Origin: a virus
Strand: one strand, 5' to 3'
Length of the DNA stretch: 53,351 bases
UHGV virus genome: UHGV-0304279
A model generated the notes under the pieces. That model had not been told where the DNA came from and did no database searches. It was given only the letters and a program-made list of their open reading frames with translations. Within the stretch, counting starts at the first letter, position 1, and every line of letters starts with the position of its first letter. Made by a program: the position numbers and the translations under genes. Shown in pieces: positions 18,627-37,933 of the stretch.

Positions 18627-18669
18627 GTATACAAAATGGATTGACTCGGTGTATCACGGGGCGTATATT
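18627..18669 (+). promoter_or_regulatory. candidate sigma70 promoter of the rightward operon with upstream motif copy
   Basis: -35 TTGACT (18641-18646), 17 bp spacer, -10 TATATT (18664-18669); motif GTATACAAAATGG immediately upstream. Confidence 0.5.
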
Positions 18670-18804: not shown

Positions 18805-19095
18805 ATGACCGTAACAATTATGTATGGCAAATGTGATAGCAAAATAAATGCCAGGGAACGCAGAAGAATAAAAAGAGAAAACGAAAGAAAATCATCACCT
18901 GCAATCAATAAAACTGACAATGTTGATAAAGCTATTCGTTTTGCAAACGTAGAAAGATGCAAACCGAATGGCATTAAAGAGCATCGCAAAGGTGCGGCAA
19001 AATGGTATGCGGAAAACGAAAGCGGCAATTACTACCACGCAACACAACCGCGTAGTCTAGGGGAAAAACCCCTGGATAAAGTACGCTACAGATAA
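18805..19095 (+). CDS. hypothetical basic protein
   Basis: RBS AAGGAG 8 nt before ATG; first gene of the rightward operon. Confidence 0.45.
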   Translation: MTVTIMYGKCDSKINARERRRIKRENERKSSPAINKTDNVDKAIRFANVERCKPNGIKEHRKGAAKWYAENESGNYYHATQPRSLGEKPLDKVRYR

Positions 19096-20596: not shown

Positions 20597-20848
20597 ATGA
20601 CAGCTACAACATTAAGCGAAAATAACGGGCGCGGTTTTCAGGGGACTGCGGAAACCTCAGACGATGGTGATGTATTTGTCGAATTCGGTGGCGGTAACTA
20701 TGAATTCGAAACGTCGGCGGGCTGGCACGATAAATGGCCTTTCCCGACGCGCAAGGAATTAAGCGATCGAAAAACATTTGGCGAAGATGCCGAACGCCTG
20801 GCGAATAATAAATGGATGGATAAATTTATTGCGGAGGCTGAAAAATGA
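20597..20848 (+). CDS. hypothetical protein
   Basis: ORF in operon context. Confidence 0.4.
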   Translation: MTATTLSENNGRGFQGTAETSDDGDVFVEFGGGNYEFETSAGWHDKWPFPTRKELSDRKTFGEDAERLANNKWMDKFIAEAEK

Positions 20849-20958
20849 GTTTTGCAAAAATTGCAGCATTGGCTGCGGCGGTGGCGATCGCGGCGCTATA
20901 TCTTAGCTTATCGCTTTATATTACGGTGGCGATCATCAAGCTGATTACAACTATGTGA
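20845..20958 (+). CDS. small hydrophobic peptide (37 aa)
   Basis: ATGA overlap with the upstream stop; MSFAKIAALAAAVAIAALYLSLSLYITVAIIKLITTM; below the ORF track size cutoff. Confidence 0.35.
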   Translation: MSFAKIAALAAAVAIAALYLSLSLYITVAIIKLITTM

Positions 20959-20965
20959 GGCAATC

Positions 20966-21088
20966 ATGAGAGTCAGTAAGGATATTGTGACGGTCGCGTT
21001 TTGCGTTATTTGTTTCCTGTTTGCGGTTGTGTTTTGTGGCGCACTTGCGGCGGTGATTAGCTTTATTGGTAAGGGGGTGATGTTATGA
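20966..21088 (+). CDS. small hydrophobic peptide (40 aa)
   Basis: MRVSKDIVTVAFCVICFLFAVVFCGALAAVISFIGKGVML; stop overlaps the next start. Confidence 0.35.
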   Translation: MRVSKDIVTVAFCVICFLFAVVFCGALAAVISFIGKGVML

Positions 21089-21357
21089 CTCTGTGGGATG
21101 CAAAAGAAGGTGATCTCGTTGTCTTGCCAGCATATCGTAGTGATCTCGGGCTGGTCGTACTGAATAAAACATGTAGCGACATTCAACGCCCGATCCTGGT
21201 TAGATACTTAGACGGCACGATGATCGAACCGCGTTTCTTCGACAAAGTTGAACTGAAGGCCCGCAATGTTCGCGTTAAGCCTTTCCGGGCTTATGTTGAA
21301 AATCACTGGCGTAAATTGTTCGCCGGACTGAATGGGATGTTTGGCGTATGGCTATAA
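21085..21357 (+). CDS. hypothetical protein
   Basis: ORF in operon context. Confidence 0.4.
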   Translation: MTLWDAKEGDLVVLPAYRSDLGLVVLNKTCSDIQRPILVRYLDGTMIEPRFFDKVELKARNVRVKPFRAYVENHWRKLFAGLNGMFGVWL

Positions 21358-22493: not shown

Positions 22494-22515
22494 CAGGGTG
22501 ATCGCGAACACATAA

Positions 22516-22555
22516 ATATACATTTTGTATTGTGGTCGCATATCCGTTTTGTAAG
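22516..22555 (+). promoter_or_regulatory. intergenic motif pair
   Basis: ATATACATTTTGTAT (22516-22530) and CCGTTTTGTAAG (22544-22555). Confidence 0.35.
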
Positions 22556-22591
22556 AAGAAATCGAAAGGTTTACGGCGCGGAGAAAACAAG

Positions 22592-22810
22592 ATGGAGCGC
22601 GAATTGATGCTCTACTGTGTAGAAGGTGGTGTAGGTCACGATGCCTACGTCGCCGGGAAAAGCTATCCAGCCGATGAAGTGCTTTTTAATATGCACTTGA
22701 GAGAAAACGAATACCAGATATCCGTGTGGAAGCGATGCGTTGATGGTGTTGAAGTTGTTAGCCTTGAAAGATATTTAGGTAAATTCGACTACGGATTAAT
22801 TGAGGCTTAA
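22592..22810 (+). CDS. hypothetical protein
   Basis: ATG 22592 with RBS GGAG. Confidence 0.4.
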   Translation: MERELMLYCVEGGVGHDAYVAGKSYPADEVLFNMHLRENEYQISVWKRCVDGVEVVSLERYLGKFDYGLIEA

Positions 22811-22812
22811 CT

Positions 22813-22905
22813 ATGGACTACACATTGCTATTTATGTGTATTTGCTGGGGGGTTATTGCTTTATGTTTATTTGTCAGATGGTTTATTGAATACCATATGA
22901 GGTGA
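22813..22905 (+). CDS. small hydrophobic peptide (30 aa)
   Basis: MDYTLLFMCICWGVIALCLFVRWFIEYHMR. Confidence 0.3.
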   Translation: MDYTLLFMCICWGVIALCLFVRWFIEYHMR

Positions 22906-22908
22906 TAT

Positions 22909-23103
22909 ATGAAACAAGTTGGAGGGTACAAGTTACCGGATAACGCAAAACTTGCAGGTATAGGTTTTAGTGGTTGTTTTTATTATAACAACATTGGTGA
23001 TATTTATATCGTTAGATATATAGATGGCGAACAACATTTTCGCAAACTGCCAGATGTTGAATTAAACAAACTTATAAGAGAGGTATCATTACATGCGGTT
23101 TAA
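22909..23103 (+). CDS. hypothetical protein
   Basis: ORF in operon context. Confidence 0.4.
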   Translation: MKQVGGYKLPDNAKLAGIGFSGCFYYNNIGDIYIVRYIDGEQHFRKLPDVELNKLIREVSLHAV

Positions 23104-23296
23104 AAATTACAGAGAATGGAAAATTCCAGCAGAAGCAACAAAGGCGGCACCTGGTGATTTTTCTGGTGTTTACTTCTATATGGATGGCAAATGGTATTTC
23201 GGCAGCAGGCCTGAACACTATTACCAGGAAATATGCAAGCCTCACGTGTGGGATATTAAGGAGCGCGTGAGAGACGGAGTAATTGAGGACGTTTAA
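23093..23296 (+). CDS. hypothetical protein
   Basis: ORF in operon context. Confidence 0.4.
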   Translation: MRFKNYREWKIPAEATKAAPGDFSGVYFYMDGKWYFGSRPEHYYQEICKPHVWDIKERVRDGVIEDV

Positions 23297-23297
23297 A

Positions 23298-23534
23298 ATG
23301 TTCAAGAGCTTTTTAAACTGGTTGGGAGCGTGGCTTTTAGCCACGCTTTTTGTTTTCCTGGCGGCAGCGGCTGTTATCGTCGTTATTATGCTGGGGGCGA
23401 TTTTTATTACGTGGTCGCTGCCTGAATTTAACGACATTGGGAATATTCTTTTTGTCGCCCGCGCTTTATTGGCGGTTAGCGCATTTGTCGGGTTTTGCTG
23501 GACTGCCGCGCCAGATTGGGATGATCCGTTTTAG
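23298..23534 (+). CDS. small membrane protein (two predicted TM helices)
   Basis: Hydrophobic segments LGAWLLATLFVFLAAAAVIVVIMLGAIFI and ARALLAVSAFVGF. Confidence 0.4.
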   Translation: MFKSFLNWLGAWLLATLFVFLAAAAVIVVIMLGAIFITWSLPEFNDIGNILFVARALLAVSAFVGFCWTAAPDWDDPF

Positions 23535-23536
23535 TT

Positions 23537-23770
23537 ATGGCTTTATTCAACCTGTCAGAGCCGCAATTTAATGCCGTTAAAACTGCCGCGCGGGCGGCGC
23601 TTTCTGCCTGCAAGACAGAGGTGGAAAGAAACGGATATAGCGATAAAGCCACGCGGCTGATACTCGACAAGCATTATCGCAAGGTCGCCCCGCTAATCAG
23701 CATTGAGCGGTTTGTGTGGTTGGTGGGGTATCTGAATAACCGCTGGGGGACGGAGCAGGATTATTTCTAA
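23537..23770 (+). CDS. hypothetical protein
   Basis: ORF in operon context. Confidence 0.4.
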   Translation: MALFNLSEPQFNAVKTAARAALSACKTEVERNGYSDKATRLILDKHYRKVAPLISIERFVWLVGYLNNRWGTEQDYF

Positions 23771-34941: not shown

Positions 34942-35433
34942 ATGATTAGCCAATCGCTGAAGAACAAGATTATTGCTGCGGCGGCTGGTGGGGCGATCGC
35001 TATTGCGGCTGTGATGGTTAAACCATTAGAAGGCGTGGAGTACGATCCGTATCGTGATGTTATCGGTGTATGGACTGTATGTTATGGTCATACCGGAAAA
35101 GACATCATGCTTGGTAAGACTTACACGCAATCAGAATGCGATGCTTTGTTAAATAAAGATCTCCACAAAACCGCAAAAGCGATCGACCCCTATATTAAAG
35201 TCGAAATATCAGATTTTACCCGCGCGGCGCTTTATTCATTCGCCTATAACGTAGGCGCTACCAACTTTAAAACATCAACATTATTGAAGCTACTCAATGA
35301 CGGCAAGAAATCGGAAGCGTGCGCACAGCTTAAACGCTGGATCTATGCTGGTGGTAAGCAGTGGCAAGGGTTAATTAACCGTCGTGATATTGAATATGCC
35401 GTTTGCGAATGGGGTGAAACATGGACAAGGTAA
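34942..35433 (+). CDS. SAR endolysin (T4-lysozyme-like, GH24) with N-terminal signal-anchor-release domain
   Basis: Catalytic-region motifs (EG..YDPY.D..G.WT.CYGHTG) preceded by a Gly/Ala-rich weakly hydrophobic N-terminal helix ([18 protein letters not shown]). Confidence 0.8.
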
Positions 35434-36005
35434 AGGCGTTAGTTATTGCCGTTGTTGTTTGCATTATTGCCGGACTAACTGCCGTTACATGTTATTACCA
35501 GGGTGAGGCGGCAAGGTTACAGGAAGAAGTCACGGTGACGCAAGGCGCACTAAAAACAGCAAGTAACACCATTCAGCAGATGAAGGAGCGAAACGCCGAA
35601 CTGTCAAAACTTGATAAGAGGTATCACGATGAGATTAAAGCTATCAGATCTGACATTGCCGATCTGCGCACTGGCATTGATAGCGGCGCTATCAGGTTGC
35701 ACGTCAACGCCGAGCCAGTGCGATTGCTCGACAATACCGGAGCCGCCAGCCGCATTGATGGAGCCACCTGTAGACTCACTCCCGACGCTGAATCGGCTTA
35801 TCTATCCCTCAGAGAACAACTAAAAGAGAAAGACGCGAAGATCACCGGATTGCAGGACTACATCAAAACGCAGTGCTTACGCAAAGAACAACAGCGCGTG
35901 GACGTGTCGCCGTTTCCGCCAGCCAGCCATAACCGGGCCAATCCTTCCCGCGAGCGACGGCGGAATAGTCAAAAACACGTAATGCCGGAACATCCATCCC
36001 ATTAA
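35421..36005 (+). CDS. i-spanin Rz (with unusually long C-terminal extension)
   Basis: N-terminal TM helix followed by coiled coil; contains the embedded Rz1 frame. Confidence 0.65.
35629..35823 (+). CDS. o-spanin Rz1 (lipoprotein, embedded in Rz in the +1 frame)
   Basis: Lipobox LSGC within a signal peptide, Pro-rich mature part; RBS AAGAGG. Confidence 0.65.
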   Translation: MRLKLSDLTLPICALALIAALSGCTSTPSQCDCSTIPEPPAALMEPPVDSLPTLNRLIYPSENN

Positions 36006-36714: not shown

Positions 36715-36810
36715 ATGGATGAATGCATCATCGCCGGATTAATTGGTATTTCTGTATTTCTGGTGAGTTTTATTATTGCCGTGCTGATAACCGTAAAGAG
36801 TAAATTATGA
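36715..36810 (+). CDS. mini-gene 1 of tandem array: hydrophobic peptide (31 aa)
   Basis: MDECIIAGLIGISVFLVSFIIAVLITVKSKL; RBS GAGG. Confidence 0.45.
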   Translation: MDECIIAGLIGISVFLVSFIIAVLITVKSKL

Positions 36811-36885: not shown

Positions 36886-36960
36886 ATGATTGACCCGCTT
36901 ATTATCCTTTCTGCCTGCGTCGCTGTATGGCTGGCGATCATGATATTCATTGAAAGCTAA
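36886..36960 (+). CDS. mini-gene 3: hydrophobic peptide (24 aa)
   Basis: MIDPLIILSACVAVWLAIMIFIES; RBS GGTGA. Confidence 0.45.
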   Translation: MIDPLIILSACVAVWLAIMIFIES

Positions 36961-36970
36961 AGGCATCAAC

Positions 36971-37045
36971 ATGAATATTTACGATCTCATCTGGTGGTCA
37001 TTGGTCGCCGTCATTATCTATTTCTGGTGGAAGAATGTTGTATAG
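36971..37045 (+). CDS. mini-gene 4: hydrophobic peptide (24 aa)
   Basis: MNIYDLIWWSLVAVIIYFWWKNVV; RBS AAGG. Confidence 0.45.
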   Translation: MNIYDLIWWSLVAVIIYFWWKNVV

Positions 37046-37053
37046 GTGAAAGC

Positions 37054-37134
37054 ATGAACGCATACGAAATGCTATTGCTGGTGGCTGTAGTTGTAGTTAT
37101 TGCCGTGGATGTATACCGGGAGATTAAAAAATGA
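37054..37134 (+). CDS. mini-gene 5: hydrophobic peptide (26 aa)
   Basis: MNAYEMLLLVAVVVVIAVDVYREIKK; RBS GGTGA. Confidence 0.45.
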   Translation: MNAYEMLLLVAVVVVIAVDVYREIKK

Positions 37135-37447: not shown

Positions 37448-37933
37448 ATGGCCCGCACTAAAAATGCAAAAGCTGACGACAAAAAGCCAGCCGCTAAAAA
37501 GGTGGGCCGTCCGCATGGTTATACCGAAGAAAAAGCGTTAGAGATCTGCGAACTGGTAGCGGACGGTCAGAGCGTTAATAAAATATCGAAAATGCCCGGT
37601 ATGCCTACCCGCACCACGATCTTAAAATGGTTTCGTGATGTGCCTGAATTTTCTGTCATGTACGCGCGCGCGAAAGAAATCGGCTTTGAGGTATTGGCTG
37701 ATGAAATCATCGACATAGCTGATGATGCTAAAAACGCTGATAAAGACCAATTGCGCCGACACCAACTGATGATTGAAACCCGCAAGTGGCTACTGGCAAA
37801 ACTCCAGCCGCGCAAATACGGCGAACGCGTTACACAGGAGATTGTAGGTAACAAGGAAGAAGCACCAGTACAGGTTGCAGTCACAAAAGAGGAGATTGCT
37901 CGCATCGTCCAGGAAGTAGAAGACGAGGTGTGA
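37448..37933 (+). CDS. terminase small subunit
   Basis: HTH-containing N-terminus (GRPHGYTEEKALEICELVADGQSVNKI), position directly upstream of the large terminase; RBS GAGAGGTG. Confidence 0.75.
   Translation: MARTKNAKADDKKPAAKKVGRPHGYTEEKALEICELVADGQSVNKISKMPGMPTRTTILKWFRDVPEFSVMYARAKEIGFEVLADEIIDIADDAKNADKDQLRRHQLMIETRKWLLAKLQPRKYGERVTQEIVGNKEEAPVQVAVTKEEIARIVQEVEDEV

Follow-up and report, generated by a model that had tools for sequence, protein, structure and literature searches.

Three short hydrophobic ORFs in the early operon of an mEp021-like coliphage as candidate genes for single-helix membrane proteins

Small hydrophobic accessory ORFs are common in the early regions of temperate phages, and the existence of three more would not surprise a specialist. 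The question raised by the three ORFs considered here (ORF1, ORF2 and ORF3), found in the early region of the virus genome UHGV-0304279, is whether they are genes at all and, if they are, what products that consist of little besides one hydrophobic helix would do in the infected cell. Throughout, the window is the whole stretch of DNA that was analysed, 53,351 nucleotides.

Position in an antiterminated early operon

Sequence comparison places the window among the phages of the mEpimmI (mEp021-like) group; its stretch 20300-23300 matches seven Escherichia phages (mEp010, mEp013, mEp044, mEp554, mEp021, mEp515 and MagusPhagus) at ~80-83% identity and 35 of 5,426 complete E. coli genomes, the closest of which carries the KKa019 prophage at 97%. 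The mEpimmI phages have been described as Nus-dependent and non-lambdoid, and in mEp021 Gp17 plays the role of an N-like antiterminator, with nutR1 upstream of gp17 and nutR2 downstream of gp32 (PMC11893012). The window encodes a Gp17 homologue, has a promoter-like site at 18641-18669 (promoter scan) and carries plus-strand genes that run unbroken from ~18.8 kb onward. The unbroken run, the Gp17 homologue and the published nut layout together point to an antiterminated rightward early operon, which reads gp17, erf, ssb, abc2 (PHROG 656), an 83-aa gene, ORF1, ORF2, a 90-aa gene and onward. The original prediction had assigned the small ORFs to an early operon, and they indeed begin ~1.75 kb downstream of the Gp17 homologue on the same strand; its three positions are likewise confirmed, each being an ATG-to-stop ORF at the coordinates below.

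18805-19095, plus strand: Gp17 homologue, 96 aa (N-like antiterminator), the first long gene of the rightward early operon, 94% identical to mEp021 Gp17
20597-20848, plus strand: upstream 83-aa gene, homologue of mEp021 gp22, PHROG 28542 (function unknown); its stop overlaps the ORF1 start (ATGA)
20833-20837, plus strand: Shine-Dalgarno GGAGG of ORF1, 7 nt before the ATG, inside the coding end of the upstream 83-aa gene
20845-20958, plus strand: ORF1, 37 aa (MSFAKIAALAAAVAIAALYLSLSLYITVAIIKLITTM), candidate gene for a small single-helix membrane protein
20957-20960, plus strand: Shine-Dalgarno GAGG of ORF2, 5 nt before the ATG, overlapping the ORF1 stop codon
20966-21088, plus strand: ORF2, 40 aa (MRVSKDIVTVAFCVICFLFAVVFCGALAAVISFIGKGVML), candidate gene for a small single-helix membrane protein
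21085-21357, plus strand: downstream 90-aa gene, homologue of mEp021 gp23, PHROG 28396; its start overlaps the ORF2 stop
22592-22810, plus strand: 72-aa gene upstream of ORF3, homologue of mEp021 gp26, PHROG 28996; travels together with ORF3
22802-22805, plus strand: Shine-Dalgarno GAGG of ORF3, 7 nt before the ATG
22813-22905, plus strand: ORF3, 30 aa (MDYTLLFMCICWGVIALCLFVRWFIEYHMR), candidate gene for a small single-helix membrane protein with an acidic N-terminus and a basic C-terminus

The small genes had also been described as coupled to their neighbours by ATGA overlaps. Such overlaps exist at 20845-20848, between the 83-aa gene and ORF1, and at 21085-21088, between ORF2 and the 90-aa gene, but ORF1 and ORF2 themselves are separated by a 7-nt gap; ORF3 is spaced from its neighbours by 2 nt and 3 nt. 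The translation signals are conserved. The GCGGAGG sequence before ORF1 is invariant in 33/33 distinct aligned sequences, third-codon positions included, a purine-rich run (GAGG, GGGG or GGGGTGAG) precedes the ORF2 ATG in every aligned relative, and GAGGCTT before ORF3 is kept in 26/26 distinct aligned sequences. Among the aligned relatives, the ORF2 stop always overlaps the next start, either as ATGA or as TGATG. Coupling as such is therefore borne out, by the conserved Shine-Dalgarno sites together with the conserved stop/start junctions. Elsewhere in the operon, a ~100-nt gap at 22494-22591, between the 206/216-aa gene and the 72-aa gene, is among the few non-overlapping junctions; in the equivalent gap, mEp010 has an annotated 33-aa ORF (mEp010_35).

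The ORFs had been said to sit where P22-like phages carry kil or host-takeover genes, and the comparison with kil did not hold. The early left operon of P22 runs 24, ral, 17, c3, kil, arf, erf, abc1, abc2, orf56, eaE, orf45, eaF and onward, so that kil lies upstream of erf, whereas the ORFs lie downstream of abc2. The translations of P22 Kil, orf56 and orf45 are hydrophilic. With kil upstream of erf, and with Kil and the P22 post-abc2 products hydrophilic, the ORFs are best taken as the positional equivalent of the uncharacterised ea accessory genes, and they have no P22 counterpart. Kil, the septation inhibitor of P22 and lambda, does resemble the ORF products in being small and accessory and in coming from an N-antiterminated early operon in which erf and abc2 are also found, but P22 Kil is hydrophilic and encoded between c3 and arf/erf, while the ORFs are hydrophobic and follow erf-ssb-abc2-gp22. 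Family scans of the three ORFs returned no Kil match.

An assignment of function from the neighbours was considered and rejected: the 83-aa gene belongs to an unknown PHROG, and the RefSeq name of the 90-aa gene, 'toxin-antitoxin system toxin subunit', finds no support in Pfam, NCBIfam or PADLOC. All 44 homologue clusters of the 90-aa protein come from the same phage group, and it has no match among the GTDB representative genomes; its AlphaFold2 model (pLDDT 53) is too poor for a fold search. The 'toxin subunit' name thus appears unsupported.

Coding constraint and allele structure

The annotated records of mEp010, mEp021 and the KKa019 prophage were compared, together with 35 IMG/VR loci reached via the 90-aa neighbour and 46 reached via Abc2. 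Both ORF1 and ORF2 are kept in all 44 distinct loci that cover the region, 12 of them found through the independent Abc2 anchor, and among these loci the ORF1 peptide comes in 23 distinct versions and that of ORF2 in 31. An intact ORF3 is found in 36 of 37 relatives. ORF1 occurs as three diverged allele types of 37, 35 and 39 aa, with identity down to 49%, and ORF2 as three types of 40 or 39, 38 and 39 aa, with identity down to 47%. The differences in length are 6-nt and 3-nt indels, i.e., multiples of three. Damaged copies are rare: L010 has a 1-nt deletion in an A-run, P0059 an ORF2 frameshift that fuses it to the 90-aa gene, and L017, the one exception for ORF3, a truncation to 22 aa. Such copies could reflect errors of sequencing, or else indicate that the genes are dispensable.

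Selection was measured as pooled Nei-Gojobori dN/dS with a codon bootstrap. The ratio is 0.19 for ORF1 (95% CI 0.11-0.28), 0.35 for ORF2 (95% CI 0.23-0.54) and 0.12 for ORF3 (95% CI 0.05-0.27), next to 0.14, 0.19 and 0.12 for the neighbouring 83-aa, 90-aa and 72-aa genes; the two other frames of each small ORF give 0.8-1.7. For the small ORFs read in frame, 0/1000 bootstraps reach a dN/dS of 1. As judged from these alignments, the small ORFs are under in-frame purifying selection, much as their annotated neighbours are. Invariant residues are K5, I6, A7, L9, A11, Y19, S23, Y25, L33 and I34 in ORF1; G25 and A29 (a GxxxA motif), F12 and F17 across the alleles of ORF2; and R22, W23 and E26 in ORF3. 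It is very probable that all three ORFs are protein-coding genes and not chance ORFs.

The opposite reading holds that the peptides are functionless, the frames being chance ORFs or spacers for translational coupling, or that the locus acts at the RNA level as a terminator, an sRNA or an antisense gene. The ORFs are very short and most RefSeq annotations omit them, the mEp021 record puts a terminator inside the ORF1 homologue, and the window has a terminator-like site on the minus strand at 20876-20863. Even so, this reading is hard to credit: the amino-acid constraint equals that of the neighbouring genes and is confined to the proposed frames, and several residues are invariant over three diverged alleles.

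Candidate RNA elements, terminators and antisense genes were rejected one by one. Rfam has no match within 18-26 kb, the folding of 20830-21100 is not in excess on either strand (z = +0.67 and -1.16), and neither terminator-like sites (12 vs 9.6) nor promoter-like sites are commoner than in shuffled sequence. The promoter scan finds no promoter-like site before the small ORFs or antisense to them, and an antisense ORF of 92 aa (20908-21186, minus strand) is broken by stops in most relatives. The hairpin in the window's ORF1 has a GC-rich tail and no U-tract, and is thus not a terminator here. In mEp021 (L002), the annotated TERM_2 at 2035-2051, which corresponds to ~20862-20877 of the window and falls inside the ORF1 homologue, reads GCCGCA-UUGCU-UGCGGC followed by UUUGUCU; an intragenic terminator may be present only in some ORF1 alleles of the antiterminated operon.

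Alleles of the two adjacent genes pair in four ways (ORF1-ORF2: a-a 16, a-c 14, b-b 8, c-a 6). Co-inheritance of ORF1 and ORF2 was considered as a sign of a heterodimer and set aside; the alleles reassort, and an obligate co-evolving pair is therefore not supported. In the alignments, the boundaries of the small ORFs are seen to behave as recombination junctions. ORF1 allele c has been swapped as a whole unit beside an a-type ORF2; in the STEC306-308 prophages, a 0.73-kb KilA-N gene lies exactly between ORF1 and ORF2, both of which are intact; and many pairwise alignments stop right after ORF3 while the downstream gene differs. In L087 (E. coli STEC308, 1672-2638), the KilA-N domain gene occupies the short ORF1-ORF2 spacer and resembles a moron inserted where two genes meet. 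The 3' end of ORF3 (CATATGAGGTGA, window 22895-22912) bears the Shine-Dalgarno site of the next gene and is a conserved mosaic junction, after which relatives carry at least three different downstream genes, with products starting MKQV/MKKV, MEQE/MEQK or MKCV.

Distribution and annotation

None of the three ORFs matches a family in Pfam, PHROGs, NCBIfam or PADLOC at E<=0.05, the best E being about 0.08. Profile searches of the PDB with ORF1 and ORF2 gave nothing meaningful, and the PADLOC defence/exclusion profiles match neither the three peptides nor seven neighbouring proteins. Homologues are confined to the same phage group. An exhaustive phmmer search with ORF1 against 1.84 billion representatives returned only 2 matches, both clusters of 37-aa orthologues; searches with ORF2 returned 46 clusters from the single sequence and 72 from a profile, all of them 37-48 aa long and from E. 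coli or uncultured Caudoviricetes. When ORF1, ORF2 and ORF3 were used in profile-guided scans of 2.9 million viral contigs (IMG/VR), only the same ~45 mEpimmI contigs of ~50-57 kb came back. A tblastn search of the phage collection with ORF1 gave no match, probably as a result of low-complexity masking. Judged by these searches, ORF1-ORF3 would be orphan families that are core to the mEpimmI group and specific for it: new and narrowly distributed, yet of a familiar type.

The original prediction called the genes unannotated, which is true of some records and not of others. All three are called as hypothetical proteins in mEp010, where PHANOTATE was used (mEp010_29, mEp010_30 and mEp010_37), and the UMNK88 RefSeq record lists ORF2 only; none of the three is listed in the mEp021 record or in the KKa019 RefSeq record. 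The ORF1-ORF2 pair is carried by 32 E. coli genomes, in most of which only the flanking genes are annotated under the match, and the 72 gene-caller clusters of ORF2 are always named 'hypothetical', once 'putative membrane protein'. The paper that describes the mEpimmI phages, supplements included, does not discuss the three ORFs (PMC11893012), and the published mEp021 mass spectrometry covers virions only. In this way, the archetype mEp021 record and most RefSeq prophages lack three core genes of a coliphage family that has been defined recently and is prevalent in the gut, and the comparative evidence now justifies annotating ORF1-ORF3.

Membrane helices and candidate roles

The ORF products had been predicted to be single hydrophobic helices, and three lines of evidence agree. 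The GRAVY values are 1.84 for ORF1, 1.95 for ORF2 and 1.19 for ORF3, which rank 3rd, 1st and 9th in hydrophobicity among the 158 ATG-ORFs of 28-45 aa in the six frames of the window; each small ORF contains a 19-residue window with a negative predicted free energy of membrane insertion (Hessa sums); and AlphaFold2, given an alignment of homologues, models ORF2 as one continuous helix over residues 5-38, with a mean pLDDT of 87. Beyond the helix, the C-terminal flanks have only 2-9 residues, of which zero to two are basic. By the positive-inside rule, ORF3, with its acidic N-terminus and basic C-terminus, should adopt an N-out/C-in topology, while for ORF1 and ORF2 the b and c alleles lean towards N-in and the allele of the window gives no clear orientation. 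Inspection of the sequences finds no lipobox ([LVI][ASTVI][GAS]C, as defined in PMC11893012): ORF1 has no Cys, and the Cys of ORF2 and ORF3 is always preceded by F, I, M, C or L. The products are shorter than 50 aa and have a single transmembrane helix and no catalytic domain, features shared with the small membrane-protein regulators, which form a functional class and not a homologous family.

What such products might do can be put as a working model, somewhat better than even in our estimate, in which each ORF encodes a small protein of the inner membrane whose helix packs against, and so binds, a partner in the membrane. ORF1-ORF3 would be translated from the Gp17-antiterminated early operon, so that their products would be made together with those of the recombination genes (erf, ssb and abc2) after infection or induction, and would be inserted into the inner membrane of the host. 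With no extramembrane domain, the peptides must act inside the bilayer, presumably by sequence-specific helix-helix packing against a larger host or phage membrane protein, or against each other, in the mode of known small membrane proteins that modulate transporters, kinases or the division machinery. The invariant small and polar residues within the helices (G25xxxA29, F12 and F17 in ORF2; A7xxxA11, Y19, S23 and Y25 in ORF1; R22, W23 and E26 in ORF3) favour specific packing over generic membrane damage as far as sequence conservation can indicate, and the status of the genes as a core part of the early operon also favours binding of a partner. The conserved positions do not cluster significantly on one face of the helix (conservation moment, p about 0.1), and a defined packing interface is thus not demonstrated.

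Small membrane proteins that regulate larger ones, e.g., MgtS (31 aa) and MgtR (30 aa), have been reviewed (PMC12648545). The ORF products are like regulators of this type in having 30-40 aa, one transmembrane helix and virtually no soluble domain, and share with them conserved small in-helix residues suited to helix packing; they differ in being phage-encoded, within an antiterminated early operon, and have no sequence relationship to them. The nearest functional precedent for a part in host takeover, as the original prediction proposed, is Gp11 of the Staphylococcus phage PhiNM1, a small membrane protein made early, which blocks division and has MurG and DivIC as binding partners (PMC11237401). 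Gp11 acts in a Gram-positive host, and no homology to it is claimed. The broader idea of small membrane-active effectors is plausible.

Membrane activity could also mean membrane damage. On this reading, the ORFs would encode 'kil'-type peptides that oligomerise to make pores, or that disorder the bilayer; the proton-motive force would collapse and host physiology would stop, as with TisB, HokB, DinQ and IbsC. Type I toxins (TisB, HokB, DinQ, IbsC, ShoB and ZorO) are, like the ORF products, small hydrophobic single-helix peptides of the inner membrane of <60 aa; the size, the single helix and the very short flanks with few basic residues fit small membrane toxins (PMC12648545), as does the high hydrophobicity, and Ser, Thr and Tyr within the ORF1 helix could line a pore. 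The regulatory anatomy of a type I system is missing, however: no promoter serves the ORFs alone or runs antisense to them, antisense RNA, a structured 5' UTR and an excess of RNA structure are lacking too, and the ORFs are translationally coupled in a long operon. Scans of Pfam, NCBIfam, PHROGs and PADLOC assign them to no toxin family (E<=0.05), and their C-termini are without the charged tail that is typical of Hok and holins. To judge from holin biology, an early loss of the proton-motive force would starve replication and could trigger the holins prematurely, which is a poor fit with three early core genes under purifying selection. Membrane damage is therefore regarded as an unlikely role.

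Holins and pinholins are small phage membrane proteins too. Holins typically have 60 aa or more and a charged C-terminal tail, and are encoded in the late lysis cassette. The ORFs are early genes, 13-15 kb from the Rz/Rz1 pair (35421-36005), and their 30-40-aa products have few flanking residues and no charged, hydrophilic C-terminal domain.

A further alternative is that the products are inner-membrane factors of superinfection exclusion or anti-defence, which would block the DNA entry of other phages or a membrane-bound host defence. T4 Imm and HK97 gp15 block DNA entry by other phages. Placement in the inner membrane, early production and group specificity would fit such factors, and the several divergent alleles would fit an arms-race target. 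Overall dN/dS is nevertheless low, not elevated, neither PADLOC nor the known exclusion proteins provide a match, and genes of an antiterminated lytic early operon should be silent in lysogens, where exclusion matters most. Moreover, the characterised exclusion function of the group is a Cor-like lipoprotein encoded elsewhere (PMC11893012). This alternative is improbable, more so than membrane damage.

A bolder reading takes the ORF products for a set of phage micro-proteins not recognised before, directed at one particular machine of the host membrane that the cell cannot do without, be it the divisome, the lipid II pathway or the membrane protease FtsH (with a cIII-like control of lysogeny). 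This reading is speculative, and about as doubtful as membrane damage. If it were true, the mEpimmI phages would possess several core transmembrane effectors peculiar to the group, aimed at new targets and overlooked by standard annotation, and to these the ORFs at 36.7-37.1 kb and the ipe-adjacent 83-aa protein could be added. The ORF products are compact candidates (30-40 aa, one helix) for effectors acting inside the host inner membrane, and would suit effector screens; few such effectors have known targets, and the targets can point to antibacterial vulnerabilities.

The ipe-adjacent protein (23283-23534, plus strand) is an 83-aa multi-pass hydrophobic protein encoded directly upstream of a homologue of ipe ('inducer of pleiotropic effects', 23537-23770). 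Its RefSeq relatives are named 'cell division protein FtsK', but NCBIfam has no model that fits the protein. Three more tiny single-helix ORFs are found on the plus strand at 36715-36810, 36950-37045 and 36994-37134, e.g., MDECIIAGLIGISVFLVSFIIAVLITVKSKL, the second most hydrophobic small ORF of the window. The Rz/Rz1 spanin pair (35421-36005 / 35611-35823) precedes them and a terminase-small-like gene (37448-37933) follows, in a stretch that is conserved in the seven mEp phages and annotated there as hypothetical proteins.
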